64,000 bases of DNA, taken from IMG/VR virus record IMGVR_UViG_3300042922_000313, positions 3,079 through 67,078 of that record; one strand, given 5' to 3'. The position numbers and the translations under genes are program-made. This document shows positions 16,954 to 62,384 of this stretch, piece by piece. The first letter of the stretch is position 1; each line of letters opens with the position of its first letter. Under the pieces are notes generated by a model, which was not told the DNA's origin, ran no database searches, and was given only the letters and a program-made list of their open reading frames with translations. This stretch comes from a virus.

Positions 16954-16956
16954 AAA

Positions 16957-17045
16957 CGCAGAATAGTGGATTTGAACCACTACAGCCATATAGCTTACTC
17001 ACAGTTTAGCAAACTGCTCCCTTACCAGATTAGGGTTAATTCTGC
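16957..17045 (-). tRNA. tRNA-Ser(GCU)
   Basis: Acceptor GCAGAAT/ATTCTGC, anticodon loop TT-GCT-AA, long variable arm, GTTCAAATC T-loop. Confidence 0.85.
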
Positions 17046-17046
17046 A

Positions 17047-17075
17047 TAAAAAAAGACCCTCCGAAGAAGTCTTTT
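17047..17075 (-). terminator. Terminator-like hairpin just upstream of tRNA pair
   Basis: AAAAGAC..GTCTTTT stem with UUCG-type loop and T-run. Confidence 0.55.
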
Positions 17076-17624: not shown

Positions 17625-20597
17625 TTATAAATTTTTTATTCTATTTTTTCGCATGTTTTCTCTAGTTTTCTCTTTATTCACCTCTTTAGCACATATCTTA
17701 CAATACTTCGGTTTATTATTTCTTTTTGTATTATATTCAAATCTTTCACCACATTTTTCACAAATCTTAGTTCCTTCAAGATTGCGTTTAATATTTTCAT
17801 ATATCATATCTCCAAATAACCTCCATAACGTATCTTTATTAATATCTCCTTGTAATGATTTCACTAATACATCGGCGATGTACTCCGCAGGCTCATCAAT
17901 TATCTCTACAAATCTGTCTTTTTGTTTAATTGAATCAAACTCTAATTGCAATTTCACTTTCTTTTTTTCATCTATTTCAAGACTATTTAAGTCAATATAA
18001 GATAACTTCCTTATGTTTGAATCGTTAATTGATTGGTATAACTCTATAATTTGTTTCGTTTTTTCAGTATTCTTATCTACATCTGGATTACTCATCAAAG
18101 TTTTATATGTATATTTGCCTAGTAAATCTTTAAATACTATACGGTTACTTTTAACAACATTGTAAATCCGATCTATGTTGCATTTCCCAAGAGACTCTAC
18201 TTGGTTTACAGTCTTTCCTTTAGCATAGATAAAAAAATGTGGAACCTTTTTACCACTATAATTCTTATACCGTTTTAATATATGTTTAGGTATTGTCGGT
18301 TTATATAATGTCTTAGCAAAATCAATAGTAAAATTAACATCGACACATCTTAATGCAACTATTTCTATTGCTTCTTCGACTTCTTCTTTTTTACTGTCTG
18401 GGCTAAGAGTCATAAATATTTTAGTGATCTCATTGCTAGGTGTGCCTATGTTACCGTGATGATATGCCAACACAATTCCTTCATAAAGAGTTGTATTATT
18501 TAACTCTGTTGGATTGGCTTTTGGCATTTCATAATAATTTGGTATCATCCCGTATTTCTTTTGAAACCTCTTTGAACAATCAATAATGGTGCGGTTCCTA
18601 TGAACTAGAAGTTTATCTCCATCATTATCATACATGAGAAGTTTACTCATGGTATCTTTAACTCCAATATATACACCTTTTGATTTTACCCATTGTTTAC
18701 TGTCTTCGTTATATTTGTTTTTTCTTATACAATGAGCATGATCAAGATGAGGCGATCTCAAACAATCAACTTCTTCATCATCTTCAAATAGTGAGCAGCA
18801 TACTTCATTTTCTTTTACAAATCCTAAATTATCTAAATTTCTCTCATCAGTAAACCACCACTGTAAACATGCTAAAACATCTGGAACTGCAAAAGTATAC
18901 GCGCCTTCAATGCTGAATTTCCCACTTCTAAACTTGTTAATCATGCTATTTTTCGTATTTTTCAATAGAGATTTTACATAGTAATCTTTAAGCATCTCAG
19001 GATAGAGTAGTAGTGACTTTTGTAAATAGGTTAATTTATCATTTTTATCTTCATTTGCACCAAGTACATTTAACATACATTCAACATTATTACCAATTCC
19101 ATTAAGATTGTCGATATCATATGATGATAACTCTTTAATTTCTCCATCTGTCATTTCTGTTGTCAAAGTTTGTAATATCTGGTAATTGGTTTTTGCGTTT
19201 AATTTAACCTTTTTTTCAACATTGCATCTACAAGCGTCACATTGGTATTGTTTGAAATTATCCTTATATACCTCCCAACCCGTCTTAATTACAACATTAT
19301 TATCATCTAAAATATTTTGAAAATATTTATGCATTTTAAACTGTGACTCGGTGAATATGTAATCTACATCATCGATATAGTGCATTTTCCCATATATATC
19401 AATGATTTTTTTGATTTTGATTCCATGTTTTTCACAATAATCCTTAAAAGCTTTTCTTGAAACATAGGCAATTAACCCCTTAATAAACGGAAGTCTTATC
19501 ATCGCTGATGGCATTTTTTTTAGTGAGATTCCAAAACCATCTGTAAAAGGAATTTTGATAGGCATATTACAAATACATGGTTTGTGATATTTGTTTCTTA
19601 TTTTATCTATTTCATCTAAAGTTTCTTTTTTTAGCCACCTAACATCTTTTTCATGATCAATTTCATGTTTTCCACGTCTTACACCTTTGTTTTTACTGAG
19701 CTTTATGATTCTTAACTCTTTAGAAATACCATCTAATTTTTCTTGTAATTCAATTAATTTATCTTTGTCTTCAGGTGTTTCAGTGTAAATATATCTTACA
19801 GTCTGATTAAGAATTTCATACTCTATATCTGGAACGACTATAGCTTTATCAATATCAAAACCCTTCCAAATTTCGCTGTTTGTCTGACACAAACTTGTAT
19901 ATGCAAGAAACTTATTTGTATTCATACCGCCAAGATTATTAATAATTTCTCTTGAAAGCCCACAAAACAATCTGTTAAAGTTTTCATTCAGTTTTTCCTC
20001 TGATACAAACGTACTCTTTTTACACCGTGTTTGACCTGCCCCCGCAGTAAAGAATACAAAATGTTTATCATTATAATCAAAACCTTTATGTATAATACTA
20101 TCAAATATTTCAGTATAATATGTAACTACACTAATAATATCATCACTATGTTGTAGATCTTTACAGCCAAAACATCTTGTTAAATCGCTTTCAAAAATAG
20201 CAATGTTACGAAATTGGTCTTCGTTTTTAAATTCTCTATTATCGTATATTTGACGTTTTATTCTCGTATTATTTGATAGCATGTTTCGGAATATGGATTC
20301 TGCGTAATCTTCAATTTTCTTACACTTTTGTAATTTATAATGACACATTTCTAAATGTTGATATAACCATTTATAACGAGTTTCATCTTCGTCAATATAC
20401 ATTAAAATACTTTCAATGATACTGATTGCTTTGTTATAGTGGTATTTTTTCTTTTTCATTATACCAATTTTCTTATATATCTTATATTCCTTTTCTGTTA
20501 AAAGTGGTTCAAACCCAATGTTTAATATCTCTATTATTGACTTACCATCTCCGTACTCAGGCTTTCTTAAATTGACACCTTCAATTATGTTGTCCAT
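17625..20597 (-). CDS. yonO: YonO-type single-subunit (two-barrel) phage RNA polymerase
   Basis: 990 aa with catalytic DNDGD, upstream RSPH, TDGFG and IRLPFIKG motifs; precedes the late operon as in SPbeta. Confidence 0.85.
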   Translation of the reverse strand: MDNIIEGVNLRKPEYGDGKSIIEILNIGFEPLLTEKEYKIYKKIGIMKKKKYHYNKAISIIESILMYIDEDETRYKWLYQHLEMCHYKLQKCKKIEDYAESIFRNMLSNNTRIKRQIYDNREFKNEDQFRNIAIFESDLTRCFGCKDLQHSDDIISVVTYYTEIFDSIIHKGFDYNDKHFVFFTAGAGQTRCKKSTFVSEEKLNENFNRLFCGLSREIINNLGGMNTNKFLAYTSLCQTNSEIWKGFDIDKAIVVPDIEYEILNQTVRYIYTETPEDKDKLIELQEKLDGISKELRIIKLSKNKGVRRGKHEIDHEKDVRWLKKETLDEIDKIRNKYHKPCICNMPIKIPFTDGFGISLKKMPSAMIRLPFIKGLIAYVSRKAFKDYCEKHGIKIKKIIDIYGKMHYIDDVDYIFTESQFKMHKYFQNILDDNNVVIKTGWEVYKDNFKQYQCDACRCNVEKKVKLNAKTNYQILQTLTTEMTDGEIKELSSYDIDNLNGIGNNVECMLNVLGANEDKNDKLTYLQKSLLLYPEMLKDYYVKSLLKNTKNSMINKFRSGKFSIEGAYTFAVPDVLACLQWWFTDERNLDNLGFVKENEVCCSLFEDDEEVDCLRSPHLDHAHCIRKNKYNEDSKQWVKSKGVYIGVKDTMSKLLMYDNDGDKLLVHRNRTIIDCSKRFQKKYGMIPNYYEMPKANPTELNNTTLYEGIVLAYHHGNIGTPSNEITKIFMTLSPDSKKEEVEEAIEIVALRCVDVNFTIDFAKTLYKPTIPKHILKRYKNYSGKKVPHFFIYAKGKTVNQVESLGKCNIDRIYNVVKSNRIVFKDLLGKYTYKTLMSNPDVDKNTEKTKQIIELYQSINDSNIRKLSYIDLNSLEIDEKKKVKLQLEFDSIKQKDRFVEIIDEPAEYIADVLVKSLQGDINKDTLWRLFGDMIYENIKRNLEGTKICEKCGERFEYNTKRNNKPKYCKICAKEVNKEKTRENMRKNRIKNL

Positions 20598-22861: not shown

Positions 22862-23419
22862 TTACAATTTGAAATCACTGAAGTCTGTCTTGATAAACTC
22901 ATATTTTACTTTGCTTCCATCAGGTATCTTTGCCTTATTGCTGACTACGAATACAGTTGGCATTACTGGTAGGTTAAACGACTTGTAATTATCGTTACTG
23001 TTGAATCGTTCATACTTTGCATAATTGAATCCTTTATTGCTGATTTCCACCTCTAAGAATCCCATATACCTACTTCCTCTATATTCATATCCGAATATAG
23101 CATCAGGTCTAATATCTCCATATTGAGGTTCTATCTTAAATGTAATCACCTCATTAGCTTGCTTGTGTAACTCACGATAGAAGTCTGTTACAAGTAAACT
23201 ATGTTTCAATTGTTGTGGTGGATCTTTCTTAGCATGATAGATATACTCCTGTGATACAAAATCTCTTGTGCGTCTAATATACTTATTCTGGTGTATTACT
23301 TCTAGCCGTTTATAACATGCTGCTTTACTTGGAAAGAATATCTCAGCAATAGTAGAAGTAGTAGCTACCTTATAATCTTGGATAAACTCTATTATTTGAT
23401 GATCTCTTGTGGTGAGCAT
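22862..23419 (-). CDS. Replication-relaxation (Replic_Relax) family protein
   Basis: LTTRD..II wHTH N-terminus, HSLLVTDF, RPDA..FLEVE PD-(D/E)xK-like motif; adjacent to FtsK as typical for this family. Confidence 0.75.
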   Translation of the reverse strand: MLTTRDHQIIEFIQDYKVATTSTIAEIFFPSKAACYKRLEVIHQNKYIRRTRDFVSQEYIYHAKKDPPQQLKHSLLVTDFYRELHKQANEVITFKIEPQYGDIRPDAIFGYEYRGSRYMGFLEVEISNKGFNYAKYERFNSNDNYKSFNLPVMPTVFVVSNKAKIPDGSKVKYEFIKTDFSDFKL

Positions 23420-23430
23420 AATTTCACCTC

Positions 23431-23471
23431 TCTAATACGGTTTCTAATAGCATTCTATTATGGTTCTAGTA
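23431..23471 (+). repeat. Four TCTAATA-like direct repeats, 11-12 bp period
   Basis: tctaata 23431, tctaata 23443, tctatta 23454, tctagta 23465. Confidence 0.55.
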
Positions 23472-23485
23472 TAAATGTGAGTGTT

Positions 23486-24730
23486 TTACCATCCAACAGC
23501 ATTAAAGATGTCTTCATCTGTCAATTGACCATTCTTGGTTTGTTTTGGTTTCTGTTTATTTACATAAGTGTGCTTAATCAATTCTTTACAAGGATCAGTG
23601 TCTAGGAATGGGCATTGTACTTCTATTAACTTACCACCACGTTTAAACTTGGCATGACCATTACCACGTAATTTCTCCAATCCAACTTCATCAATGATTA
23701 TGCTGCTATTAGTACTATTAATAGTTTTTAAGCCTAAAATTGATGTTATATTAGCTTTTATATCACCATCAAGTATCTTAGACGACGGACGTTGGGTGCT
23801 AAGCAAAATGTGAATGCCACAGGCTCTGGACTTCCTCGCCAATAATTTCAATAGATTCATGTCATCAGATTTTGCGTCTAAATCAGCAAATTCGTCTACA
23901 ATTAATATTTGATAATCCATCTTCTTTAGTTTAAACTTTTTATTGTATTCTTTGATGTCTTTAACATCTTTCTCGTAGAACAAATCATATCGTCTGTCCA
24001 CCTCTATACTCAGAGACATTAATAAATCATGTGTCTCTTTTGTATTTCTACAAAAGCTTGCTACCTTACTAGAATTACGAAACAAGTTAAATTCAGCTCC
24101 ATTCTTCAAGTCTACTAGGTGTAATGTTACATCTGACATAAGTATTAAATTAGTAATTATCGTTCTGATAATGGTACTTTTCCCACTACCAGATTCTCCA
24201 TAAATACCCATATGTGGTTCTCCAGATGATAAATCACATGAGATTAGTTCTTCTCTAATGTCATAACCAATAATAATAGGAACTTCACCTTTAACCTTTG
24301 TTGGCACATATTCATAGAAGGTCTTCTTATTACTATTATATACTTCAATCATTATCTCCTTATAGGTGTACTTCATATCAACTTCAGCACCAATATAGTT
24401 CTCTATAGCTTCTTTCTTGTCATCAAAGTCCTTAATGCTTAATCCTGCTGGTAATGTAAATCTGTAAATGGTGCTAATATCTGTTTTTGTCTTACCTTTT
24501 AGAATCGGATATGCTAATCCTTTACCTAATCCTAAGTTATGAAACAACCTATCAAATTTGCTATAAGTCCATGCATAGTAGGTTATTCCTGCTACTCCAA
24601 GCACTTTGAATAACTTACACATAGGAGATAGTGATGGATCAATCAATTCAAATCCAAAGCCACACATGATTGAATATGCACTGTTTTGGACGATTAACAT
24701 ACGTAAGTCTTTCACATCATTGTTTTTCAA
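23486..24730 (-). CDS. FtsK/SpoIIIE-family ATPase with N-terminal membrane segment
   Basis: PHMGIYGESGSGKS Walker A, LVDLKNG, ILIVDEFAD Walker B, RKSRACGIHILLSTQRP. Confidence 0.9.
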   Translation of the reverse strand: MKNNDVKDLRMLIVQNSAYSIMCGFGFELIDPSLSPMCKLFKVLGVAGITYYAWTYSKFDRLFHNLGLGKGLAYPILKGKTKTDISTIYRFTLPAGLSIKDFDDKKEAIENYIGAEVDMKYTYKEIMIEVYNSNKKTFYEYVPTKVKGEVPIIIGYDIREELISCDLSSGEPHMGIYGESGSGKSTIIRTIITNLILMSDVTLHLVDLKNGAEFNLFRNSSKVASFCRNTKETHDLLMSLSIEVDRRYDLFYEKDVKDIKEYNKKFKLKKMDYQILIVDEFADLDAKSDDMNLLKLLARKSRACGIHILLSTQRPSSKILDGDIKANITSILGLKTINSTNSSIIIDEVGLEKLRGNGHAKFKRGGKLIEVQCPFLDTDPCKELIKHTYVNKQKPKQTKNGQLTDEDIFNAVGW

Positions 24731-24741
24731 TATATCACTCC

Positions 24742-25014
24742 TTACATATTATCAAATGAGTCTAATAGGTTGGCTAATCCTTCTTGACGAAACGGTAAAT
24801 CATTATCCGAATGTGTATATAATGGTTGCTGTACTACTTGTGCCTGATATACATTTGGGTTTTCTTCTCGTTCTAATTTCTCATATGCAGCTTCTTTCAT
24901 AAATCCAGCTATATTAATATACATACATCTTCTTTTGATTCTGTAGTATAATTCTAATTCCTTCTGACCAAATGATACTTCTATTGATGGTGGTCTATCT
25001 TTCTTATCAGGCAT
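24742..25014 (-). CDS. ParR-like (ribbon-helix-helix) partition adaptor
   Basis: 90 aa directly downstream of ParM; strand-helix-helix N-terminus and disordered tail. Confidence 0.55.
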   Translation of the reverse strand: MPDKKDRPPSIEVSFGQKELELYYRIKRRCMYINIAGFMKEAAYEKLEREENPNVYQAQVVQQPLYTHSDNDLPFRQEGLANLLDSFDNM

Positions 25015-25016
25015 AA

Positions 25017-25940
25017 CTACCTCCTGTTGTCACATGCTCTTAATTGTGGTTCTATTTGTGATCCAAATCTTTGATAACCAACTTTATAATAACCGATTGC
25101 ATTTGCAAATTGACTATTCACCATGAGTCTAGCTGAAGGGAAGTATAGTTTAAACAAGTCATAGAATACGATAGCTGAACCACCACATAAGTATATTTGT
25201 GTATTAGCTGAAGGATAATTTAATTGGAATTCCTTTAATATTGGCTCTAGGTATTGTTTGTAAGTAGATAGTAAGAAATCAGTAGATACTTTTTCTCCGT
25301 GAAGATATAAGCCATTAGATAGAATTGTTTCTGCATATTGAATATCTAGAGTGAGATTGTACTTTTCATTTACCATATTGATTATCTTAGAATATAACTT
25401 TTGTACTCCTTGTGTCCATGTATCATACTTCTGTAATACTGGATTTCCATAGATGATTTCTAAGTAGGCTATGTCGATTGTCATTCCACCAAAATCAAAT
25501 ATGATTACATGACTATTTAACTCTTGCTGGCTTAATGCCGCACCAATACATTGAGGCATTACGAATACATCTTGGATACTGAAGTTGAATGGTTTGCCTC
25601 TGTATATAACTTCTGATCCATTGTATCCTAATATCATTTTCTTAAATTTATCTTTCTGTGATTTGTATTGTGCAATTGGTAATCCAACAACTAGATAGTA
25701 ATCATCACTACCTGTCATTGCCAGATTGGTTAGTGTTGTAACTTTGTTTATCTCGCTGTCGCTCTTATCAAACTGTACATTTCTTTCTCCGGCTCCAACT
25801 GAGTAGTCTACACCATCAATAGTAATTAATGCTGAAGCTCCTAATGATACTGTTTCTCTAGTGTAAGCTGAACGGAATATTCTCATCTCATTGTCTTTTG
25901 TGTATAAGTACCCGTGATCTAATCCTTTAATTCTGCCCAT
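25017..25940 (-). CDS. parM: ParM/StbA-family actin-like ATPase
   Basis: GLDHGYLYTK phosphate-1, VVGLP, PQCIGA, DFGGMTID phosphate-2, LCGGSA, ANAIG. Confidence 0.85.
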   Translation of the reverse strand: MGRIKGLDHGYLYTKDNEMRIFRSAYTRETVSLGASALITIDGVDYSVGAGERNVQFDKSDSEINKVTTLTNLAMTGSDDYYLVVGLPIAQYKSQKDKFKKMILGYNGSEVIYRGKPFNFSIQDVFVMPQCIGAALSQQELNSHVIIFDFGGMTIDIAYLEIIYGNPVLQKYDTWTQGVQKLYSKIINMVNEKYNLTLDIQYAETILSNGLYLHGEKVSTDFLLSTYKQYLEPILKEFQLNYPSANTQIYLCGGSAIVFYDLFKLYFPSARLMVNSQFANAIGYYKVGYQRFGSQIEPQLRACDNRR

Positions 25941-36253: not shown

Positions 36254-36271
36254 CAAAAATTACATTTATTA

Positions 36272-36321
36272 TAATATATATAAAACTGAGTATTGACATA
36301 CAATATTAGTAGTATTATAAT
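36272..36321 (+). promoter_or_regulatory. Consensus sigma-A promoter with TAATATATATAAAAC box
   Basis: TTGACA 36293-98, 17 bp, TATAAT 36316-21; box 36272-36286. Confidence 0.85.
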
Positions 36322-37798: not shown

Positions 37799-38050
37799 AT
37801 GAAAACAATAACATATATAGACGACAGAACACCAAGGGAAAGGATATTAGAGTTCATTAAACAATACATAGAAGAACACTGTTATCCGCCAACTACAAGA
37901 GAAATAGCTGCCGGAGTTGGATTAAAATCTGCATCGACAGTATGTGAACATATTAAAACACTAATGCAATTTGGATTAATTGAAACAGATGCAGAGATAG
38001 GATCAAACAGAGCATTAAGAGTAGTAGGAATGAAAATGGTAAGAGCGTAA
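37799..38050 (+). CDS. Stand-alone LexA-type DNA-binding domain
   Basis: ILEFIKQYIEEHCYPPTTREIAAGVGLKSASTVCEHIKTL..G.I...RAL; no peptidase domain. Confidence 0.8.
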   Translation: MKTITYIDDRTPRERILEFIKQYIEEHCYPPTTREIAAGVGLKSASTVCEHIKTLMQFGLIETDAEIGSNRALRVVGMKMVRA

Positions 38051-39438
38051 AAAATAATCAAATAATATTTGATTTAGAAAGGAGAAAAATGACTGTAATA
38101 GAAAATTATAAAGGTGTGAATATTGCTTCAGCAATTGTTTGTTATAATATAAGGTATTTTGTTATGAATAAACTTTTTACACATTTTGATACAATCGAAG
38201 AAGCTAGAGAAGACATAGATAATACAATACATATGGGTATTGCTTATGATTGGATAGCGAAGAATAAAGAGTATATAAAACATATTGATTTTAGTAGAGA
38301 TGATTTAATTCAAATAGGAATAAACATTAGTAGCATGAACAAATAACTTAAAATACTTAATTGATGCATTGAAAATAAAACAATAAAGAAAGTAGGTATA
38401 ATAAATGTTAAAGATTAAAAATAAGAAAGTAGATATAAAGAATGATAATGGTGATGTTGTTGTAACAGATGGCAAAACAGAATATTACAGGGCTAATAAG
38501 TCAACACAGACTATAAGTATTGCAAATAGTATTTATTGGTCAGTCAAATATGAAGAGGTGATATGAATTGACTGAAGAAATTTGTATGGAATGTAAGCAC
38601 TGTGAGATATTAGAATATGGATATAACGGAAGATTAGGAGCAACGATTTTAATATGTAACATACTCGAAGAGGACAATGAAAATAAAGAAGAGTGTTTTG
38701 AACAAAGTACATAAAATCGGAATTTGAAGCAATAGAAAGGATGAGAAATTATGAAACTAATTAAAGGTATTTTAGTATGGTTTGGAATGATATTTATGGC
38801 AGTAACAGCTCCAATATGGTGGTTGTTAAAATATGATATGATAGTTGAAATCGATAGAAAAGGAAGACACTTTTAACATCAAACAGTCATTCGATTACAT
38901 GAAAGAAGGTATAAAATAATAGGTATTTTATTAATTCCACTATTCTTTTTAGTCTTATGGATTGTAGACATATGTCAGGCTAAACAGAGGGAAAAGGATT
39001 ATGAAGCATATCAAGAAGAAAAACGAAGAAAGGGATTGATTTAGATGAGTTATATAAAACTATCAGAGATTAAAAAGTATGAGAAATTTCAGTTAGCTAA
39101 CATTGCCGGATATAATGTAACAGAAGATAAAGAAACAGGAAGATGCTACATCGTAGGAGCAGATAATTGTATCAATAATGATTTTAGTAACATTGACGAA
39201 GTATTAAAACTGATAGCTAGTGACTTGAAGCGTAAAGGCTTTGTCGTAGCTGCGTAGGAGGCTCATATGCAAGCAATTTTGTTAGTTATAGTAATAGTTG
39301 CACTAGTAGTTACTTTAATGGATTATAAGCCATTAAGCAAGCGTATAGAAGAGGCAGATAACAATCCAAACAATAGTATTAAGAGCGATAAGTGGAAGCG
39401 AGAGCATGGAATTATAAAGTGAAAGGAGTGTAGACAAT

Positions 39439-40404
39439 ATGGGATATGCATTAGCATCTAATAATCAAAGTTATAGTAAATCAAATAAGAGAAACGTAAA
39501 AGTTAAAAGAGAAGGTAACGTGTATACTATTTCAGATAAAAAACAAAGTGGCAAACAAAAAGGTGATAAGGCATACCCATTAAAAACACTAGAAGAAATA
39601 GCTGCCGTAATAGAGTATTATGAAAACAAAGCTAATAACGCAAGATACAAACAATCAGCGGATAGAAATAAACTTTTACTAATAGTAGGATTCAATATAG
39701 GTATAAGAGCGTCTGATATAACAGAACTCAGATGGAGTAACGTGTACAATTCAAAAGGAGAATTTCTTTTACCTGATGAAGAAGAAGCGAGTACTGGCAG
39801 AACTTCAATAATAACAGAAAAGAAAACTGGAGATATAAAGAATTTAATATTCAATGATACCGTTAAGGCTGCTTTTACAGAATATGTTTCTAAATATAAT
39901 ATTGATATTTATACCGACGATTATATATTTAAAAGTAGACAAGTGAAAAAAGACGGAACATATAACATAACAGTCGATACATGTTCAGATATTATTAAAG
40001 AAGCTGGCGAAGCCTGTGGAATCAATAGAAATTTTGCAAGTCACACATTAAGAAAAACATTTTGTTGGTTTCAAATGGAAGCACATCAAGACGATGCTAG
40101 ATTCACAAGTGAGCTAATGGACATTTTAAATCACGATAATGAAGAGACTACATTGAAATATGTTGGTTTGGATTTAGAAAGAAAAATTAAATATCATAAT
40201 GATGTACAGCTTGGTAAAACTTCTACTCTTAGAAAACATGAAAAAGTTGAACTAGGAAATAGTAATTTAGTTATTGATAAAACAGATCTAGAATACTTAT
40301 TGAAACAATTGGCAGAGAAATGTTATACTTGTAATAATGAATGTGGAACGTGTTATAATTCTATGATAGCAAAGAAATATGGATATGATCTAAATACAAT
40401 TTAA
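39439..40404 (+). CDS. Tyrosine recombinase/integrase with intact catalytic residues
   Basis: GIRASD (R), EKKT (K), HTLRK (HxxR), LNH (H), TLKY (Y); C-terminal CxxCxxxCxxC extension. Confidence 0.9.
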   Translation: MGYALASNNQSYSKSNKRNVKVKREGNVYTISDKKQSGKQKGDKAYPLKTLEEIAAVIEYYENKANNARYKQSADRNKLLLIVGFNIGIRASDITELRWSNVYNSKGEFLLPDEEEASTGRTSIITEKKTGDIKNLIFNDTVKAAFTEYVSKYNIDIYTDDYIFKSRQVKKDGTYNITVDTCSDIIKEAGEACGINRNFASHTLRKTFCWFQMEAHQDDARFTSELMDILNHDNEETTLKYVGLDLERKIKYHNDVQLGKTSTLRKHEKVELGNSNLVIDKTDLEYLLKQLAEKCYTCNNECGTCYNSMIAKKYGYDLNTI

Positions 40405-40415
40405 GAGGTGATGAA

Positions 40416-40634
40416 GTGAAGAAGTATCCAAATAGATTGCAAGAACTAAGAAAAGAGTACGGACTCAAACAAGATGAATATGCAGAACAAAGTGGAGTAG
40501 CAAAGCAAACAGTTGAGAAGCTAGAGCAAGGTGTAAATAACATCAACAATGCCAGCGTAGATACTATTATAAAGCTCTCAGAGGCTCTAAGATTGACTGT
40601 AGAAGAGTTTATGAGTAAAGTTAAGTTAGAATGA
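40416..40634 (+). CDS. XRE-family HTH regulator
   Basis: RLQELRKEYGLKQDEYAEQSGVAKQTVEKLEQG. Confidence 0.85.
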   Translation: MKKYPNRLQELRKEYGLKQDEYAEQSGVAKQTVEKLEQGVNNINNASVDTIIKLSEALRLTVEEFMSKVKLE

Positions 40635-40746
40635 TTTAAGGTACTATAGAAGAGAGATTTTATATAGTAACATATCAAATGTTATTATGAAAAAATTATG
40701 TTACAATAAAAAACTATATTTATTAGATTATAAGGAGGATTAGGTT

Positions 40747-42836
40747 ATGAAGAAGTCTTGCATTTTAACTGAAGAAAATAAAAATGGAGCACAAATATTT
40801 TGGTTTGAACATCCAGATACAGAAGATCGTGATTTTAATAGAAATTATGTAAAAGTATTTTTTAATGAAAGTGATGAGCAACCATTTTTAAGATGTCATG
40901 TGTCAAATGTTATTGAAGTTCCTGAAACAGAGATCAAAAATAGATGGGGAAGTTTATATGCCTCTGATGAGTATTTTAAATCAGTAAGTGATAAATGGAA
41001 AACCGTTTAAAAAAGCAATTTTACGTGATTGGAGGATAATTAATATGAGTTTTTGTAATATCGAGAAAGCACAAATAATCATGAAAGAAGTTAATAAGCT
41101 AGACCTAGATCTTACAGAGGAAGAAGTATTCAAGCTAAAAATCGCTATTAATGATGGATTTGATCAGGTTGATAAGAAACAGAGAGAATATGACAGAATG
41201 TGGAATGAAGAATAACAACAAACTTAAATTTGATACGATGGAGATGATTTATTTTAATAGTAAAAGTAAATATTGTTTTATATGATGAAAGGAATTAATT
41301 TAATGATAAATTTTATAAATAAATTAATAAAAAGAAAATTAATCAAAAAGGATAAAATTCCATATGATGCAATGTCAAAAGGAATAACTAATACAGGTAA
41401 ATGTCGTGAATATTCAGTAAAGAAAAAATAATTGGTTGTTATACGTGATGTAATTTAAAAATTAAATTAATATAGCAGAAAGGAGGAGCTTTATGAATAG
41501 TAGATATATTATAAATGCAGATACAAAGAAAGTTGAAAAGTGGCTGTTTGAAAAAGAAGAAGGCAATAGAACTTTATTATCTAAAGGCAAAAGTCTGTTA
41601 TGGGTTGAAAGCAATTGTGTCTTTAATGAAAAAGATAAAGCCGACAATGTTGCTAAATCACTAAATTGATAATAAAATGAGAATTTGAAAGGGATATGGA
41701 ATATGGATAATAAATTTATTTGTCCGAAATGTGGTGGGAATATTAGATACTGGCAAGAGTATTCATTTACAAAAACCAAAAATATTAATCCGAAAACAGG
41801 TAAACCAGTTAAAACTGTAAGGACTAGTAAGCCAGAAATATCAGATGGTTTAAGAGGTTTTGAGTGTTGTAAGTGTGATTGGTCTGAACATGAGTGTTTG
41901 GGTGATATACCAAATGAACTGGATGGTTGGAGATCTGAACACTATGAAAATATAAAAGAGTTAACATGAAACATGAATTCGATGCTATATAGAAAGGAAT
42001 GGTAATGAAAGAAGTAGATAATTGGGAAGTCCTTAGAAAAGGAAATAGAGTAAGACTATATACTGATAATGCAAAAGTAATCTATAAAGATGGAACAGTA
42101 TTACAGGGTGCTTATGCTTCTGGTGTAACATGGGTGATATTTGATGGTGAAAGCAGAGGAACATCAGTAGATGCGTGTGATTTAATAAAGCTTATAAAAT
42201 AAACGTTTTAAGAGATAATGAAAGGAGTTGGTTATTTGAATATTAAATGTATTAAAAATTCTAATGGTAATGGAAATTTCACGATGGGAAACGAATATAA
42301 AATTGAGAAAAACAAGGATAAATATTTTGGCGATTATATTGTTACCTGTGATTTTATTCATGTTTTTGCAGATAGAGATACGTTAGATAATGTATTAGAC
42401 AAACAAAAAGGTGATCTATTTGATTTTGCTTGTTGTAAGTTTGAAGTGATATAACATGAATGAATCAATTGATGTTAAAAGAAAGGAGAAAGATATGGGA
42501 GAACTTAATGTAAAAGAAGGAGATAAGGTTTATTATGAATATGGATATTCATATAATAGAAGAGAAGAAATAACCACTGTTACAAAAGTAACACCGACTG
42601 GTAGAATAAAGGTAGAATGTAGTGATTCCCAATTTGATAAGTATGGAAGAGAAATGGGTAAACATGATAGGTGGTCGAGTAGTGCTTCAATATCAGAAGC
42701 AACCGATGAAATTATTCAAAAGGTAACGGAAAGCAATACAATCAAAGAATGTCTATCAGCTATAGGCAAACTAAACGATAAGACACTTGATTATAGCAAG
42801 GCAAAAAGTATATTAGATATTTTAAATAGCAAATAA
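40747..42836 (+). CDS. Run of small hypothetical genes, most bounded by junction sites (includes Zn-ribbon protein 41703-41969)
   Basis: ORFs 40747-41010, 41045-41215, 41703-41969, 41999-42202, 42218-42454, 42495-42836 with SDs. Confidence 0.6.
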
Positions 42837-44027: not shown

Positions 44028-45389
44028 ATGTTAGCTGAAACAATTAGTAATTTAAACGCAGTGGTTCAGGTAGCCGGAATCGGATTAGTATCATACGGAG
44101 CATATGCACTTTGGAATGTATTTGATAACACAGATAATAAGTTATGTGATTGGAGAGAATTAAAATCTTTAATGGGTGATGGCGTATCGCTTTCTAAGAA
44201 TGTTAGACTATCGGTTAAACAAAGTAACAATCACATTTGTATGATTGCTCCCTGTGAGAGTGGTAAAAGTAGAAGATTTATCATGCAAAACGTAAATAGG
44301 TTAAAAAATTGTAGTTTAATAGTTACTGATCCTTCAGGCGAAATTGAAAAAGCTTGTAATCCTATCAAGAAGAAGTATATATTAAACCCATTTAGTAACA
44401 ATACAATAGGTTATGATCCGCTTAAAAATTGTCATAGCGAATTCGAAGTACGTAAAATTGCAAATGTTATTTTGACAAATGGAATGAATGCATATAATAA
44501 AAATAACAAGAACAGTAATCAACAAGATTGGGTTTCAATGGCTACCCCTCTACTTACATCTTATATGCTAGTGAATTACCATACTAAAAAATATACGTTT
44601 TCAGATATGATACAAAATATCTGTACGATGAATATACTTCCAGTTGTTGTGGAAAAAGATAAAGATGGAAAACCCACAAAGATATTAAGATCACTTCAAC
44701 AAGAAATATTAGATAGTGGAGTAGAGAGTGCTATAATAGAATTTCTTTCTTTTAAACAAGTTGTTGGAGCACAAGAAACACTGTCTAGTATTCGCATTGT
44801 AATGAACAGTTGTTTACAATTGTTTTTAGATAGAAGTGTTAGAAAGATATTTGAAAAAGAAAATATTGATATTGCTAAATTAAGAACAGAAGAAAGTGTT
44901 GTATATATCCAAATTCCTGAACACCATGCAGATTATTTTTCACCCCTAATAGCAACATTTTTAACTCAAATATTTGATTTCATGCTTGAAAATGATGGAT
45001 TGGAAACTTATTTTCTTTTCGACGAAATGGCGAATAATGGGATTATAAATTCAATTTGTAAGATACTTAGTACAGCAAGAAAACACAATATGTCAATCAT
45101 AGCAGCAATACAGTCTTTGAATCAATTTTTCACTGTATACGGAGAATTAGAAGGAAAAGAGTTAATCGATTTATTTAAAACTATTATTGTGTGCAATGGC
45201 TTAAAAGATAGTGCCGAATATATTTCTACATTGCTTGGTACAAAGAAATATAAAGAAAACGATATAACAAAAACAGAGCCGCTTATGACACCAGATGAAG
45301 TAAGAAGATTGAGAGATAACGAAATACTTGTAATATGTAATAACAAACGTCCAGTAGTAGATAAAATGATGGATATAGTAGTGGGGTGA
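44028..45389 (+). CDS. TraG/VirD4-type T4SS coupling-protein-like ATPase
   Basis: N-terminal TM helix, IAPCESGKS Walker A-like, IVTDPSGE, YDPL, FLFDEMAN, ARKH..IQSLNQ..YG, LMTPDEVRRL. Confidence 0.8.
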   Translation: MLAETISNLNAVVQVAGIGLVSYGAYALWNVFDNTDNKLCDWRELKSLMGDGVSLSKNVRLSVKQSNNHICMIAPCESGKSRRFIMQNVNRLKNCSLIVTDPSGEIEKACNPIKKKYILNPFSNNTIGYDPLKNCHSEFEVRKIANVILTNGMNAYNKNNKNSNQQDWVSMATPLLTSYMLVNYHTKKYTFSDMIQNICTMNILPVVVEKDKDGKPTKILRSLQQEILDSGVESAIIEFLSFKQVVGAQETLSSIRIVMNSCLQLFLDRSVRKIFEKENIDIAKLRTEESVVYIQIPEHHADYFSPLIATFLTQIFDFMLENDGLETYFLFDEMANNGIINSICKILSTARKHNMSIIAAIQSLNQFFTVYGELEGKELIDLFKTIIVCNGLKDSAEYISTLLGTKKYKENDITKTEPLMTPDEVRRLRDNEILVICNNKRPVVDKMMDIVVG

Positions 45390-46014: not shown

Positions 46015-46274
46015 AGATTTGATATACAAAATAAAAGTACCATATAATACCATTTTTAAAATTAACATAGAATATATTAAACTTTACACGCAAAAGTGTT
46101 GACTCTTAAAATTTAATGTGCTATATTATATTTACAGAACAGATATAAAACATTAAATTAAAGGACGGTGATCAACATCTTGTTTAGGTACTGAAAAATT
46201 CAAAACAGAAGGAGATTATAAAAAATGCACGTTAATAACGATGATTCGAGTTGAAAATGAAGGAGAGATTATTT

Positions 46275-46679
46275 ATGACAAATAATACAAACGAACTAGC
46301 TTTAAAAAGAGGTGATGTGTACTGGGCTTCATTGCCGAGACTAGAGAATAGTAGAATTCAAGCAGGAGTTAGACCTGTAATTATAACATCAAACGAAATG
46401 GCATTAAAACATTCACCAGTAATTCAATATATCCCAGTTACAACAGAGTTAAAGAAAATTAATTTACCAGTGCATGTTACGCTGGACTCAACATTCTTTT
46501 TACATCCATCTATGGCACTAGTAGAGCAAGAAGGATGTATTGATAAGAACAGATTAATGGAGAAAATAGGCACACTGACTGAAGACGATATGTTACATAT
46601 CGATATGGCAATTATAACACAACGAGGAATAAATATATATGATATGATACGTAATACAAAACAGTACAGCTATGCATAA
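46275..46679 (+). CDS. mazF: PemK/MazF-family endoribonuclease toxin
   Basis: KRGDVYWASL...QAGVRPVIITSN...PVTT...LPVHV...EQ...IDK.RL; ATG at 46275 after AAGGAG. Confidence 0.8.
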   Translation: MTNNTNELALKRGDVYWASLPRLENSRIQAGVRPVIITSNEMALKHSPVIQYIPVTTELKKINLPVHVTLDSTFFLHPSMALVEQEGCIDKNRLMEKIGTLTEDDMLHIDMAIITQRGINIYDMIRNTKQYSYA

Positions 46680-46781: not shown

Positions 46782-48041
46782 ATGAAAGTTGATGAATCAG
46801 ATTTGCGTTCAGTGTTGCGTGAAGCACTTGCAGATGCAAATAAGAAAAAAACATCGGCAGATAAAGCAAAAAAGCTTATGTATAACATGTACAATATAAC
46901 TGTAGGCGAAGCAGCATTTATATTAAACGGGAAAACCCCTCTGGAGTTAATGCAGAGAGATATGTTGTTTAAAGTAACAAATTCATTATACGAATTAAAT
47001 AAAAGAGTTGGTGCGACTTTTGATTTTGAGAAATTAGACGTAAATAAATATTTTACAGAAGATGAAAAAATAATTTATCACCAAGCAATAGATAGAAAAA
47101 AACAGGATAAAGATATTGTTATTAAAGCTGGTAATTGGATGAAAGTTGAAGATGATCAGTATGTTATAAAAATATATCCAGATGAATTATTGAGTGATTA
47201 TATTAATAGAGATAAGATTAATTACAATCCAGAAACTCAACGTTATTTAACGACATTAAGAACGAAAAGTGGAGAAGAAATTCAAGTTATTACTTTTGAT
47301 GAAGATGCCTGTGAAGATATATTTAACGAAATGTCTAATGGACTATATATTAGCAATGTATTAGCTTTAAATGTGAATCCAGATTATTATACTCCGCCTA
47401 GGATAGTAAATGGAAATATAGTTATTCCACATGATTCAGTTATAGATTGTATAGACGGATATCATAGACTAAGAGCTGCAATTAATACTAAGTTAAGAAA
47501 TCCAGATTGGAACCAACCACTAGTCTTCTTTTTGTTTATATGTGACGTACAAAAGGCTTGCAGATATATATTAGAAGAAGATAAGAAAATTCATTTAAGC
47601 AATGAACAGACCGAAAAATCAGATGAAACAAATGCAGTAAATTTTATAATAAAGAAATTGAATGATGATGTTCATTTTGCATTAAGGAATACGATTTCAG
47701 GTAACAAATATAATGTTGTAAATAAAACAATTGCAAAATTATTTAATCCAAATAAGTTATATACACAAGAAGATAGACAAGAAGCTGTTAAACTATATCA
47801 ATTAATTAAAAATAATATAAACTCATATATTGAAAACAATGATCTATATAAGCAAGAAATAACTAAGGAAAAATGGTTTATATTATTATATATTCTTAAT
47901 TATTGCAATGACAAAGAGATAGAATTTGTAGATTTTGTAGGTAAGTTTGATATTGATTTATTATCCAACCATATGAATTTTACCAATACGCCATCTGACA
48001 AACATTATAATATTTTGAAGGAGGCAATTGAAAATGTATAA
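46782..48041 (+). CDS. ParB/DndB-like DGxHR protein (SPbeta YopQ/SroF-like)
   Basis: YNPETQR and IDGYHR motifs; overlaps integrase-fold gene as in yopQ-yopR. Confidence 0.65.
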   Translation: MKVDESDLRSVLREALADANKKKTSADKAKKLMYNMYNITVGEAAFILNGKTPLELMQRDMLFKVTNSLYELNKRVGATFDFEKLDVNKYFTEDEKIIYHQAIDRKKQDKDIVIKAGNWMKVEDDQYVIKIYPDELLSDYINRDKINYNPETQRYLTTLRTKSGEEIQVITFDEDACEDIFNEMSNGLYISNVLALNVNPDYYTPPRIVNGNIVIPHDSVIDCIDGYHRLRAAINTKLRNPDWNQPLVFFLFICDVQKACRYILEEDKKIHLSNEQTEKSDETNAVNFIIKKLNDDVHFALRNTISGNKYNVVNKTIAKLFNPNKLYTQEDRQEAVKLYQLIKNNINSYIENNDLYKQEITKEKWFILLYILNYCNDKEIEFVDFVGKFDIDLLSNHMNFTNTPSDKHYNILKEAIENV

Positions 48042-48993
48042 CGAATCACAAAAAAGAAGGTATTTAAAATATTGCGCTGATATGTATGAACCAATGACTG
48101 TTGAATTAATCGAAAAAATATTTGCATCAACGGAAGAAGCGGAAACTCAATTTGAAAAGGATGTATGCGACTTTAACCCTGTAGATGCGGTCGAGTTTCT
48201 TAGGGGTTTGGGTTCAAAATCACGAAGAAGATTACAATCAACATGTATTAGGTTAAGCAAATACTATGAGTGGTGTAAAAATGTTGAACATTTAACAACT
48301 AATATTATTAATCCGTTTGATAGTAGAGGGATTGATATAGTAATCGATGGAATTATTCCATTAGAGGACTTAAATCAAAAATTCTTTACTAAACAGCGGT
48401 ATTTAGAAATGCTAAACGAAGTAGTTGATGTATCGAATAAATTTATTTCATATGCATTTTATTGCGGATTAACTAATGAAGAAATAGCAAATTTAAAGAT
48501 AGAAGATTTGGATTTTGATAACAATATGGTACATTTAGTTTCAGGAAGAGATTTAAAAGTTGACTCACTATTTAAAAATTTGATGATACAAACAAATGAT
48601 CAAACTCAGTATTTTCCAGATGGTATTGAAAAAGAAAACAGAAACAAAATGAACAATTACGCAGACAGTGAATATGTCGTAAGATCATGTGACAAAAATG
48701 TACTAGAACCTGTTTCAAAAGGGTATATTGCGGTAAGAGTTAGAGTAATAAAGGAGCAAATGGAAAATAATTTTGTTTCTATACCAACATTATATATTAA
48801 TGGATTAATTAATTATATAAAGGAACAATATGCAAAAAGGGATATAAATTTAAAATCAGTATTTCTGGATAAGGTTGATAGTAGAATATATAAACATGAC
48901 GAAGAAACACAGAAATATATTAATGAATTTGGATCACAAAAAACAGTTAGATTTTTACGAATGGAAATAAAAGATTATCTTGACTTGCTTTAA
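48028..48993 (+). CDS. mrpR: Integrase-fold lysogeny repressor (MrpR/YopR-like), probably catalytically inactive
   Basis: MYNE.QK.RYL N-terminus, FEKDVCDF, GLTNEEIANLKIED box-I region lacking Arg; no HxxR. Confidence 0.65.
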   Translation: MKMYNESQKRRYLKYCADMYEPMTVELIEKIFASTEEAETQFEKDVCDFNPVDAVEFLRGLGSKSRRRLQSTCIRLSKYYEWCKNVEHLTTNIINPFDSRGIDIVIDGIIPLEDLNQKFFTKQRYLEMLNEVVDVSNKFISYAFYCGLTNEEIANLKIEDLDFDNNMVHLVSGRDLKVDSLFKNLMIQTNDQTQYFPDGIEKENRNKMNNYADSEYVVRSCDKNVLEPVSKGYIAVRVRVIKEQMENNFVSIPTLYINGLINYIKEQYAKRDINLKSVFLDKVDSRIYKHDEETQKYINEFGSQKTVRFLRMEIKDYLDLL

Positions 48994-58716: not shown

Positions 58717-59265
58717 ATGGAAGATAGGGTATATCGACAAGGAAGAATAGTATTTTTATCAGGTGTAATAACACAAGAATCTGCCGGAGAAGTTATCAAT
58801 CACCTTCTCAATTTAATTCAATATGATGATCAAGAAGACGAAAAACAGAAAGAATACAAGAGAGAAGATATTAAACTATTTATTAAGTCTAATGGTGGAA
58901 CCGTGACTGATATGTTTGGGATGATTGATTTAATAGAAAGTAGTAAAACACCAATTAATACATATGCAATAGGTAACATAGCTAGTGCCGCTGTTCCATT
59001 ATTTATTAGTGGAAAGAAAAGATATATCTATAAAAACACAGAAGTCATGATACATACATGCTCCGGTGGAACTAGAGGAAAAATTCAAGATATGATTGAA
59101 ACTATTAAGAATGTAGAAGATACACAAGTAATGATTGATAATTATATTTTGTCAAAGACAAAGATTGCCAAAGAAAGATTAGTTGAAGTGAGAGAAAAGA
59201 AACTTGATTGGTATTTATATGCCGATGAAGCGGTTAAATTAGGAATTGCGGATGAGATTTTATAG
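58717..59265 (+). CDS. clpP: ClpP-family protease subunit
   Basis: RIVFLSG.I, IKSNGG.V, IASAA (Ser), VMIH (His), DWYLYADEAVKLGIADEI. Confidence 0.85.
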   Translation: MEDRVYRQGRIVFLSGVITQESAGEVINHLLNLIQYDDQEDEKQKEYKREDIKLFIKSNGGTVTDMFGMIDLIESSKTPINTYAIGNIASAAVPLFISGKKRYIYKNTEVMIHTCSGGTRGKIQDMIETIKNVEDTQVMIDNYILSKTKIAKERLVEVREKKLDWYLYADEAVKLGIADEIL

Positions 59266-59299
59266 AAGAGGTATTTTATTAGATGAAAGGAGAAAATAG

Positions 59300-61263
59300 A
59301 TGAAAGTAAATATTGAAATGAATAATCTTGAATTATTAATTCAAGAAGCTATGAGCAAAAATATTGAAACGGTTATTAAAGACGAAGTTAATAAAACAAT
59401 AAATAAAACTATTGAAAAGGAAACAAAAGGTGTAGTAGATGAAATCGTGCAAATGAAAATGAATGAGTTTGTAAAGGAATACATAGAAAAAGCAGTTATT
59501 ACAGTTGGTGGAGGATTTTACTCTAAAGAAGAAGCTCAGACATATACAGTTGAACAATACATAAGAAAAGAGTTAGCTGACGTTCTTTCATCAAAATCAT
59601 TAAAAGTCAAGAAGAACGACAGATACAATGATAGTTATGAAAGCATTTCATTTGAAGAATTTATTAAGAGATCATTTAATCCTGAAGAAATTGTAAGGAA
59701 GGAACTAACTAAATTCATAGATGATACAAAGAAAGAAATTAATCAAAAAATTAATGATACATTTACAAGTGTAACTAAAAATATGCTTTCCGAGACAGTG
59801 TTTAATGTACTTATGAAAAACGATACCTTTGTGCAGCTTAATAATAGTATTAAATGTATTACCGATAAGAAGGAATAACCTATGGAAGAAATCATTCAAG
59901 ATTGGGAAAGTTGCGAATACATACATACCACATATTATGAATATGATACGGGATATTCTGAATATGGATGTTGCCTGACTGGGTTTGGATGCTTAGGAGA
60001 TAAGTATTGTCCATTGTGTTTCAAGTATAAAAAAGATGAATAGAATAGAGGGTTTATGTTATTTTTTGAAAGGAGAAATTAGATGAAAGTTTATGTAGTA
60101 ACAACAGGAAGCTATTCTGACTATGGAATTGATAAAGTTTTTACAAACAAAGAGAAAGCAGAAGAATACGCAGAATGGTTGGAAGATTCAAACGATGTAG
60201 AAGAATATGAAACTGATGATAATGTTAGTTTTGAAAAGTTACACAACGTTCATGTTCAAATGAAGGTTTATGATAATGGAAAAGAGGATTTGAGTTATAG
60301 AGTTTATAAAACAAAAGATAAATGCAATAGTTATACTTATTTATCAGATTATCATAAATACGGAGGAGATTATATTGACATTACTCTAAGTCGTTATGTA
60401 ACTAATGAAAATTTTAATGAAGAATTCTACAGAAATAAATATACTAAAGCCATTTATGATGTACTAGCAATCATTAGAAGTAAACTAGCCGATGGATATA
60501 ATGAGAAGGAAATTAATGAATTGCTAAATAATATAGAATCAATGTGATATTTGGTGGTTAAAGTGAACAATATTAAACAATGAAAAGGAGAAAAAATGGC
60601 ATTATTATTAACTGTAGTATTTTTATTTTTTGTTATCGTGGGTTTTACAAGAGATTGGGATGAAGATGGTTGCGGTATTCTTGTAGTAGGATTTCTAATT
60701 GGATTAGTTATAACTTCAATTTTTGGAGGATTAGTTATTAACGGAAGAACAATTCAAGCTAAAATTGAAATGTATCAAGAAGAAAATACCAACATTGAAG
60801 AAAGTATGGATTTATTAGTACAAAAGTATATGAATTATGAATCTGATACATATGGTGATTTGAAGGGTGAAAGTAGTATTACACTAGTATCTCTTTATCC
60901 TGAGTTAAAAGCAGATACGTTAGTAGAGCAACAATTAGTTATTTACGTTGAAAATAACAATAAGATTAAAAGCCTAAAAGAAAAACAAATTAATATCAGT
61001 AATTATAGATGGTGGCTTTATTTTGGAAAATAACATCAATCAGGTGTTTGATGTTCTTTAGGAAGGAGATGGCAATGGATATCAGAGAAGCTCTACAAAG
61101 AATTAAACAAGATTTTGACGAGAACATTGGAGAAGAAGGTTATAAAGAAGAATTTAGCGATGTACTAGAAGCAGAATCTATATTAATACAATTTGTCAGC
61201 GCAGTATTAAAAGAACCATGTGATTTAAAATATAACTGGGAACACAGAACTGGAATAAATTAA
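59300..61263 (+). CDS. Hypothetical genes 59300-59878, 60083-60547, 60596-61033 (membrane), 61075-61263
   Basis: AAGGAG SDs; junction sites at 59262, 60040, 60538, 61035. Confidence 0.6.
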
Positions 61264-61590: not shown

Positions 61591-62376
61591 TTGTTAAAAA
61601 TAAATGGAGAATTAGTTGGTAATACATGTTTTCCAAACAATGAGCGAATATTAAAATCGGTTGATACTAGTGCTTATTTTAAATTTGAACTTACATACGA
61701 AGGTGATAACGATATTTTTACATTGATTATGTATAAAAGATATCTTGACGATATCTATCCAAGATCAACAAAAGAATTACATATGATGTATGTTCCTTAT
61801 TCAAGAATGGACAGAGAGATTGAAGGATTTATGTTTAGCTTAAAGTATTTCTGCCAGACTATCAATGAATTAAAGTTTGACAAAGTATATGTGTTTGATA
61901 CTCATTCAAATATAACTAAAGCATTATTAAACAGAAACCATGAGTTTAATGTATTTAACAATATTTATTACATATTCATGCAAGAAAATATAGACTATGT
62001 TTTTTATCCTGATGCCGGAGCAATGAAAAGATATTCTGAAATGTTAAAGCTGCCACTTGATACGCAATATTTCTTTGGTAATAAGAAACGTAATCTACAG
62101 ACAGGTGAGATTATTAAGTTTGAGTTAGTAGATGCGCCAGACTTAAATGACAAAACAGTATTAATAATTGATGATCTTTGTTCAAAAGGCGGCACGTTCT
62201 TAGCTTCAGCAAAAGAGATTAAGAATGTAGGAGCAAGTAAAGTACTATTGTATGTATCTCATTGCGAAAATTCAATATATGACGGAGGAGTTTTAAACAC
62301 TGATCTAATTGATAAAGTATATACAACTGATAGTATTTTACAGAATTTCAATCATCCGAAATTACATAAATTATAG
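61591..62376 (+). CDS. prs: PRPP-synthetase-like protein (NARP1 Adps candidate)
   Basis: FPNNE, YVPYSRMDR, DTHS, PDAGA, IIDDLCSKGGT PRT loop; adjacent to NAMPT-like gene. Confidence 0.8.
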   Translation: MLKINGELVGNTCFPNNERILKSVDTSAYFKFELTYEGDNDIFTLIMYKRYLDDIYPRSTKELHMMYVPYSRMDREIEGFMFSLKYFCQTINELKFDKVYVFDTHSNITKALLNRNHEFNVFNNIYYIFMQENIDYVFYPDAGAMKRYSEMLKLPLDTQYFFGNKKRNLQTGEIIKFELVDAPDLNDKTVLIIDDLCSKGGTFLASAKEIKNVGASKVLLYVSHCENSIYDGGVLNTDLIDKVYTTDSILQNFNHPKLHKL

Positions 62377-62384
62377 GAGATAAT

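Follow-up and report, generated by a model that had tools for sequence, protein, structure and literature searches.

We analysed a stretch of 64,000 nucleotides, referred to below as the window, from the IMG/VR virus record IMGVR_UViG_3300042922_000313 (67,078 bases; CheckV completeness 42%; GC content 29.8%). The gene in question lies at positions 39439 to 40404 on the plus strand and encodes a tyrosine recombinase of 321 amino acids. Its product matched the Pfam family PF00589 (Phage_integrase) at residues 67-244 with an E-value of 1.7e-15 and a score of 57.7 bits, against a curated cut-off of 27.1, and its best PHROG family was phrog_216, annotated 'integrase' (E 3.3e-40, residues 34-267). 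Among 5.8 billion clustered proteins searched, 24 relatives were found, every one of them in a metagenome. The window protein was aligned with 21 of them to give 22 rows; P0016, which is truncated, and P0023 and P0024, the weakest and shortest, were omitted. The residues R90, K129, R205, H232 and Y241 are invariant in all 22 rows, and H202 is kept in 21, P0017 carrying Tyr instead. The catalytic residues follow one another in the canonical order R-K-HxxR-H/W-Y.

The active site is also preserved at larger distances. When relatives of 23-46% identity and the SPbeta protein YopP were added to the alignment, R90, K129, H202, H232 and Y241 were still invariant and R205 was found in 10 of 11 rows, so that the catalytic residues are strictly kept over a range of identity from 23 to 80%. 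Box I (GIRASD), the HxxR motif and the H...Y motif could be aligned with those of XerA and of another recombinase of solved structure. Foldseek grouped the AlphaFold2 model of the protein with Cre, XerA, XerH and IntI4 (best E 6e-5), with a probability of 1.0 for the first three; in the profile comparison, IntI4 gave a weak match (E 2.5e-4) that spans about 70 residues. Among the GTDB genomes no relative exceeded 37% identity. By profile, by residues and by fold, the protein is a member of the tyrosine recombinase superfamily.

The N-terminus of the protein is short and basic and has a predicted beta-hairpin; a catalytic domain (about residues 45-250) and a C-terminal extension follow. No Pfam domain was found in residues 1-66, where neither an arm-binding nor a core-binding (SAM-like) domain was detectable. 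The AlphaFold2 model, with a mean predicted local distance difference test score (pLDDT) of 72 and a predicted template modelling score of 0.67, shows a confident catalytic domain at residues 45-215 (block means of pLDDT between 83 and 96). Ahead of this domain it contains merely a low-confidence beta-hairpin at residues 21-32 and no four-helix core-binding bundle, and the C-terminal tail is poorly predicted. The same build was seen in seven of seven scanned relatives from other phage lineages, in which PF00589 begins between residues 50 and 90 and a SAM-like domain is missing.

The tail carries four cysteines, C295, C298, C302 and C305 (CxxC-x3-CxxC), encoded at 40321 to 40353 on the plus strand. 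All 18 full-length homologues, of 45-80% identity, carry the arrangement C295-x2-C298-x3/4-C302-x2-C305 with AKKYGYDLNTI after it, and the three relatives of 250-260 amino acids do not have it. In the metagenome contigs of a sister clade (L166, 310 amino acids, 42% identity) the helix that precedes the tail is retained and the cysteines are gone. The last 75 residues were also searched with phmmer, exhaustively, against 1.84 billion representatives; this returned two representatives of the same clade only, together with a third, marginal match that leaves the cysteines uncovered, and a search of the ESM Atlas with the tail gave no usable match. The four cysteines probably form a small knuckle that would bind a metal ion. 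A C-terminal extension with a segment of the form '...ID..DL..LL', located past the catalytic Tyr where the alignment is weak, is common to several relatives from other lineages and YopP.

The recombinase gene sits among many small co-oriented open reading frames. Upstream of it on the plus strand are a gene for a protein of 70 amino acids (39045 to 39257), conserved in the close relatives, and a gene for a hydrophobic peptide of 51 amino acids (39267 to 39422). Downstream, an XRE-family helix-turn-helix gene of 72 codons (40416 to 40634, plus strand; PF01381, E 2.2e-12) starts 11 bp past the stop codon of the recombinase. The transcription unit likely starts at 36271 to 36321 (plus strand), where a repeat box is followed 6 nucleotides later by a perfect TTGACA-17-TATAAT promoter; the tight packing of the genes suggests that this unit would extend to the recombinase. 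A preliminary description of the locus had announced an intact recombinase of 321 amino acids with all catalytic residues, an apparent lack of an arm-binding domain and a cysteine-rich C-terminal extension, next to an XRE gene. All of this was borne out by the present analysis, in which the small co-oriented genes around the recombinase share a repeated short site, and the remark on the arm-binding domain was an understatement, the core-binding domain being missing too.

The surroundings of the gene were compared with those of its close relatives, which are carried by short metagenome contigs (L162 to L167, 42-80% identity; close homologues lie on contigs of 1.3-2.4 kb). The homologues P0005 and P0013, on contigs of 61.5 kb and 78.9 kb, stand outside this comparison. 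The 70-amino-acid gene and a peptide gene of about 50 codons are syntenic upstream of the recombinase in four of the four relatives with enough DNA (L162, L163, L166 and L167), the 51-amino-acid hydrophobic peptide itself being recognized in L162, L166 and L167. In L164 the 70-amino-acid gene is present and the second small gene encodes a different peptide. The gene content differs directly downstream of the recombinase, and this variable junction carries no copy of the repeated box described below.

The window can be placed as a fragment of an SPbeta-like phage because it carries homologues of YonO, YopQ and MrpR/SroF. The gene for a YonO-type single-chain RNA polymerase of 990 amino acids lies at 17625 to 20597 on the minus strand; its product has 38% identity to that of SPbeta yonO and its best match in Clostridium phage D-1873. 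On the plus strand, a YopQ homologue, in the position of SroE, occupies 46782 to 48041 (phrog_5732, E 3e-38; BLASTP E 1e-9), and SPbeta YopQ itself matches phrog_5732. It is followed at 48028 to 48993 (plus strand) by a homologue of MrpR, also named YopR or SroF, with 321 amino acids, a match to PF22822 (MrpR_N_CB, E 2.6e-15) and to phrog_5830, and 24% identity to YopR over its full length (BLASTP E 4e-11). Directly upstream of these two genes lies a PemK/MazF-like gene, at 46251 to 46679 (plus strand).

IMG/VR contains more distant relatives of the recombinase (24-37% identity), whose contigs are 46-171 kb long, and several have YonO-like genes within a few kb. A PemK/MazF-like gene lies 0.3-5 kb downstream of the recombinase relative in L015-17, L026, L037, L039 and L040, and in four lineages (L015-17, L026, L037 and L040) the next gene encodes a protein of 317-345 amino acids. 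For L015 this protein matches MrpR_N_CB and phrog_5830, and for L026 it gives a sub-threshold match to MrpR_N_CB together with a match to phrog_1, the general integrase family. No family match was obtained for the proteins of L037 and L040, the latter showing a short local match only to the MrpR homologue of the window. The window has the same order, PemK-like, YopQ-like and MrpR-like, about 5.6-5.8 kb downstream of the recombinase. Brady et al. 2021 (PMC8612738) describe a layout of XRE, integrase-domain, ParB-domain and integrase-like repressor genes that is conserved in function and not in sequence among SPbeta-like arbitrium phages.

The repeat family of the window was rebuilt from k-mer counts and an all-against-all mismatch scan, independently of an 18-bp definition given previously. 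The dominant repeat has the core ATATWAAAC and forms an asymmetric box about 19 bp long. The window contains 57 exact cores, where composition predicts about 4.6 per strand; 55 are co-oriented with the genes, and 30 are fully intergenic, the intergenic share of the window being 19%. From 35 instances at gene junctions (30 intergenic, four partly over a gene end and one, at 44002, over a stop codon), in which the information spans about 19 bp, a matrix was derived. It gave 68 matches at a score of at least 10, of which 67 are co-oriented, against 5.6 per strand in shuffled sequences. At a short distance, the boxes precede sigma-A-type -35 elements or ribosome-binding sites. A long form, TAACATAATATATATAAAAC, stands 2-6 nucleotides upstream of near-perfect TTGACA-17-TATAAT promoters. 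A sigma-A-like promoter (at least 10 of 12 positions) is found within the 25 nucleotides after eight of the 35 boxes, as compared to 3.5% of random intergenic positions, and a ribosome-binding site with a start codon follows 11 of the 35.

The box itself has no dyad symmetry, and inverted partners within 150 nucleotides occur at the null rate. Windows of 100 nucleotides around the 35 boxes fold no better than shuffled sequences (mean z of -0.58, with five of the 35 below -2). In the region 39548 to 41271 no match reaches a matrix score of 6, and the box nearest to the recombinase, at 39045 to 39063 (score 14.8), overlaps the start of the 70-amino-acid gene. The XRE gene had been said to end at a junction site at 40646. 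The 18-mer at 40646 to 40663 (plus strand) has only four matches in the window at up to three mismatches, falls outside the ATATWAAAC family and was rejected as the motif of an array. Two of its four matches are accounted for by a local duplication, since an upstream region of 57 nucleotides occurs twice with 75% identity (59262 to 59318 and 60045 to 60101, plus strand), before two adjacent genes. Five boxes were counted on the gene strand and none on the other in about 10 kb of the short contigs of close relatives. None of 239 loci examined has five or more ATATWAAAC cores on a strand, and a scan of IMG/VR with the 20-nucleotide long form hit one contig with a single core, a chance match. When IMG/VR was scanned with the window's MrpR homologue, no relative came up. 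The idea that the box is a promoter of the YonO polymerase was set aside, the box being present in both gene blocks; in the passages covered, PMC5467207 names one YonO start site and gives no promoter consensus.

We then compared the boxes with SPBRE, the element bound by MrpR in SPbeta, which was recovered from six SPbeta upstream regions named in the MrpR paper. All six contain the same 14-mer with at most one mismatch, always co-oriented with the gene. It is located either a few bases upstream of the -35 element (aimR, yonX and yonT) or directly upstream of the ribosome-binding site (yopM, yopV and a second copy at yonX), and the boxes of the window occupy the same two placements. The distant phage L026 (GC content 42%) has an oriented box of its own, AACAAACTAA, between 2320 and 17446 of its contig (plus strand); six copies were seen, all on the gene strand, of which four adjoin a -35 element and two a ribosome-binding site. 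According to PMC10516654, MrpR binds SPBRE in chromatin affinity purification sequencing and in electrophoretic mobility shift assays, and its catalytic residues are lost. A preprint on SroF (bioRxiv 10.1101/2025.11.27.690993) reports that this same protein binds as a monomer, encircles at many sites an asymmetric box no longer than 24 nucleotides, recognizes boxes that differ between phages, and owes much of its DNA contact to the core-binding domain. An oriented, non-palindromic and promoter-proximal box spread over the genome is what the SroF monomer model predicts, and the matching repressor is encoded in the window. The boxes are most likely operator or promoter-associated elements of the SPBRE type, and their probable binder is the MrpR/SroF homologue at 48028 to 48993.

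The closest counterpart of the recombinase by context is YopP, the fourth gene product of yopMNOPQR and, by gene order, SroD. Both proteins match PF00589 and phrog_216 (the best PHROG family of YopP being phrog_1), both are encoded beside an XRE helix-turn-helix gene in a phage with YopQ and MrpR, the residues R, K, H, H and Y can be aligned, and both proteins extend past the catalytic Tyr, in a region of weak alignment. They differ in that YopP has Lys for the second Arg and no cysteine knuckle, whereas the window protein has the Arg and the knuckle. The integrase-domain gene and the XRE gene stand in the opposite order in the two phages, and the XRE neighbour is missing from both close relatives with visible downstream DNA. 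The two proteins would thus share the slot and the superfamily, with no demonstrable common subfamily. The preliminary description had offered a regulatory, integrase-like protein of YopP/SroE type as its alternative. The context, with an SPbeta-like phage, YopQ and MrpR homologues, and PemK- and MrpR-like neighbours of the relatives, made this proposal the better of the two; specific similarity and domain architecture did not support it, and by gene order the label would be SroD instead of SroE. No experimental statement on the function of YopP was found in the literature searched; SroD was reportedly called an auxiliary repressor in a 2023 Cell Host & Microbe paper.

Other recombinase-fold proteins provide partial parallels. 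MrpR/YopR/SroF (PDB 8A0A, cited in PMC10516654) has in common with the window recombinase the tyrosine-recombinase fold, the phage group and the regulatory neighbourhood. MrpR, which has a core-binding domain and no longer the catalytic Arg and His, is the converse of the window protein, and the latter matched neither PF22822 nor PF22823 (MrpR_N_CB and MrpR_C_cat) in Pfam. Small integrases of phrog_216 from Clostridium phages phi3626 and phiCD146, Streptococcus Javan phages and Bacillus phage BtCS33 share 28-34% identity over the catalytic domain. Their matches begin at residues 47-76 of the query, so that the common part is devoid of an N-terminal region of the size of a core-binding domain, and their genes lie away from classical attP-int positions. 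These integrases end soon after the catalytic Tyr, whereas the window clade adds a four-cysteine extension of 75 residues. To our knowledge, no functional test of them has been made. Cre, XerA and XerH display the same catalytic fold and motif order; they also have an N-terminal core-binding clamp and dyad-symmetric sites, neither of which was seen for the window recombinase.

The reading that we favour, with a probability of about one half, is that the product of the gene is a competent recombinase which belongs to the lysogeny module and would act at one dedicated site. Because the six catalytic residues are kept across divergent lineages, whereas MrpR/SroF lost them, we infer that the enzyme still cuts and rejoins DNA. 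It would fill the integrase-domain slot held by YopP in the yopMNOPQR (sro) operon of SPbeta, and its dedicated site may serve for the phage genome's integration and excision or for the resolution of multimers, as might be needed by a plasmid-like prophage. The short repeats would not be its substrates and would be bound instead by the MrpR/SroF homologue.

Several observations weigh against this reading. We know of no studied precedent for a recombinase devoid of a core-binding domain, so that catalysis may need a partner. The window protein shows no specific similarity to YopP (BLASTP E 0.89), and YopP possesses a SAM-like core-binding domain (PF02899) that the window protein is without. The family profile found no match in the SPbeta genome at an E-value of 0.001 or below, which is a weak negative since the search returned no first-pass candidates. 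The XRE gene is absent from the two close relatives with visible downstream DNA, L163 and L165, which hold unrelated small genes at this place. The recombinase is separated from the PemK, YopQ and MrpR genes by the 5.6-5.8 kb mentioned above and by several promoter-like sites, and is not part of their operon, unlike the relatives in L015, L026, L037 and L040, which are closely linked to the PemK- and MrpR-like region. A candidate recombination site was looked for without success: within 3 kb of the recombinase the inverted repeats are pairs at chance level only, the best of them with 70-84% complementarity, a value that chance gives in AT-rich DNA, and TAACAT...ATGTTA pairs numbered four against 1.5 expected. 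Every box-bearing lineage seen has both an MrpR-like protein and the small type of recombinase, and co-occurrence can therefore not assign the binder of the box. Finally, with the record about 42% complete, another integrase may sit outside it.

A second explanation, possible and clearly less probable, is that the protein is an auxiliary repressor or DNA-binding regulator which, jointly with the homologues of YopQ and MrpR, maintains lysogeny, possibly by acting at the boxes or next to them, and performs no recombination. The gene would occupy the YopP slot of the regulatory layout outlined in PMC8612738, several lineages show its relatives in linkage with PemK-like and MrpR-like genes, and the same string of genes holds, besides the XRE protein, a protein with a LexA DNA-binding domain. 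MrpR further illustrates how a recombinase fold has been recruited for repression (PMC10516654). Against a purely regulatory role stands the strict conservation of the catalytic residues from 23 to 80% identity, which contrasts with their loss from MrpR as given in the same text. Moreover, MrpR/SroF makes much of its contact with DNA through a core-binding domain (10.1101/2025.11.27.690993), which the window protein does not have.

The preliminary description had preferred a cassette recombinase that acts on the 18-bp sites. Such an enzyme would recombine the repeated boxes and so excise, insert or shuffle small genes, as an integron integrase does at attC. The likeness to IntI/attC is that of a tyrosine recombinase near short co-oriented sites between small genes; the catalytic residues are intact, the gene lies amid about 70 such sites at gene junctions, and the short contigs of close relatives also carry co-oriented boxes (five against none). 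The boxes of the window, at about 19 bp, asymmetric and unstructured, differ from integron sites. Only two of 57 cores are inverted, neither inverted partners nor folding is in excess, and the placement of the boxes tracks promoters and ribosome-binding sites and matches the operator of a known repressor. The one variable junction visible, after the recombinase, is without a box, and the two upstream genes, syntenic in four of four relatives, do not resemble free cassettes. Contigs from three soil metagenome runs, which cannot show rare variants, were searched for rearrangements. Six of about 44 endpoints of contig joints fell within 20 bp of a box, where about 4% were expected; the joints were taken at 80% likeness, and either other organisms or the repeat itself may account for them. 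The joints were ambiguous, most of them with sides shorter than 30 letters or in AT-rich low-complexity matches. In none of the soil-metagenome contigs are two of the phage's own boxes joined, and in run X1 the contigs of the phage are colinear with the window. The proposal in this form is improbable.

It can be extended to a phage-borne system resembling an integron, which we consider hardly more than a long shot. Here the intact recombinase, in spite of the missing core-binding domain, would act at the roughly 70 boxes. It would do so by itself, by means of the N-terminal hairpin and the Cys4 tail, or after recruitment by the catalytically dead MrpR/SroF homologue bound to the box, with nicking, excision or reshuffling of small early-gene segments as the outcome. 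In the version with recruitment, it is proposed that recognition and chemistry are split between two proteins of the recombinase fold. An invertase-type switch like FimB/FimE, flipping a nearby promoter or gene segment, would agree with the small size and minimal N-terminus of the protein and with short inverted repeats in the 112-bp intergenic region past the XRE gene, and is very unlikely, as no long inverted repeats surround any nearby segment and both the best complementary pairs and the few TAACAT...ATGTTA pairs are those described above.

The gene bears on the lysogeny switch of SPbeta-like phages, which is unusual for being built from recombinase-fold proteins and in which the integrase-domain member, YopP, is understood least of all. 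In distant clostridial-type phages of soil and gut, MrpR-like repressors are accompanied by a minimal recombinase whose active site is intact and in which the core-binding domain is missing. This raises for test whether catalysis is needed in the YopP slot and how a recombinase can act with no core-binding domain. The oriented array of boxes would offer a ready set of operators for monomeric repression of the SroF type outside Bacillus. Shuffling of cassettes at these boxes, if true, would amount to a new kind of phage gene-shuffling system.

The remaining genes of the window define the phage further. They include, for a tailed phage, those of the portal protein and the large terminase subunit, together with genes of plasmid or conjugation type: Replic_Relax, FtsK/SpoIIIE-like and actin-like (ALP_N) genes at 22862 to 25940 on the minus strand, of which the FtsK/SpoIIIE-like and ALP_N segregation genes cover 23486 to 25940, and a VirD4/TraG-type coupling protein at 44028 to 45389 on the plus strand. 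This combination suggests a phage-plasmid lifestyle. Clostridium phage D-1873 has a tubulin/FtsZ-family gene, TubZ, at a comparable position, about 1.7 kb from its FtsK-like gene.

Some further features were noted. In SPbeta, the MazEF system of the host is tied to the arbitrium switch; with the PemK/MazF-like gene at 46251 to 46679, the phage of the window has its own copy of such a gene. The LexA-type protein, whose gene (37799 to 38050, plus strand; PF01726, E 1e-15) belongs to the string that holds the recombinase, is a stand-alone DNA-binding domain of 83 amino acids with no peptidase domain, and it could compete for SOS boxes with LexA of the host. The YonO gene has immediately downstream a gap of about 1.1 kb poor in open reading frames (16489 to 17624, minus strand) with one repeat box (core at 17449); SPbeta has the YonO start site and an unannotated RNA at a comparable place. 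Next to this gap, in the late-gene block, a gene at 15172 to 16488 (minus strand) encodes a Beta-CASP/RMMBL metallo-hydrolase resembling the nucleases RNase J and CPSF. At the right end of the window (61591 to 63999, plus strand) are genes of the nicotinamide adenine dinucleotide salvage type, one ribose-phosphate pyrophosphokinase-like and the other for a nicotinamide phosphoribosyltransferase. On L004, a large phage contig of IMG/VR, a dense array of 16-mers at 18971 to 19965, with about 20 near-copies per seed and a spacing of 60-190 bp, could represent iterons or a CRISPR-like array.

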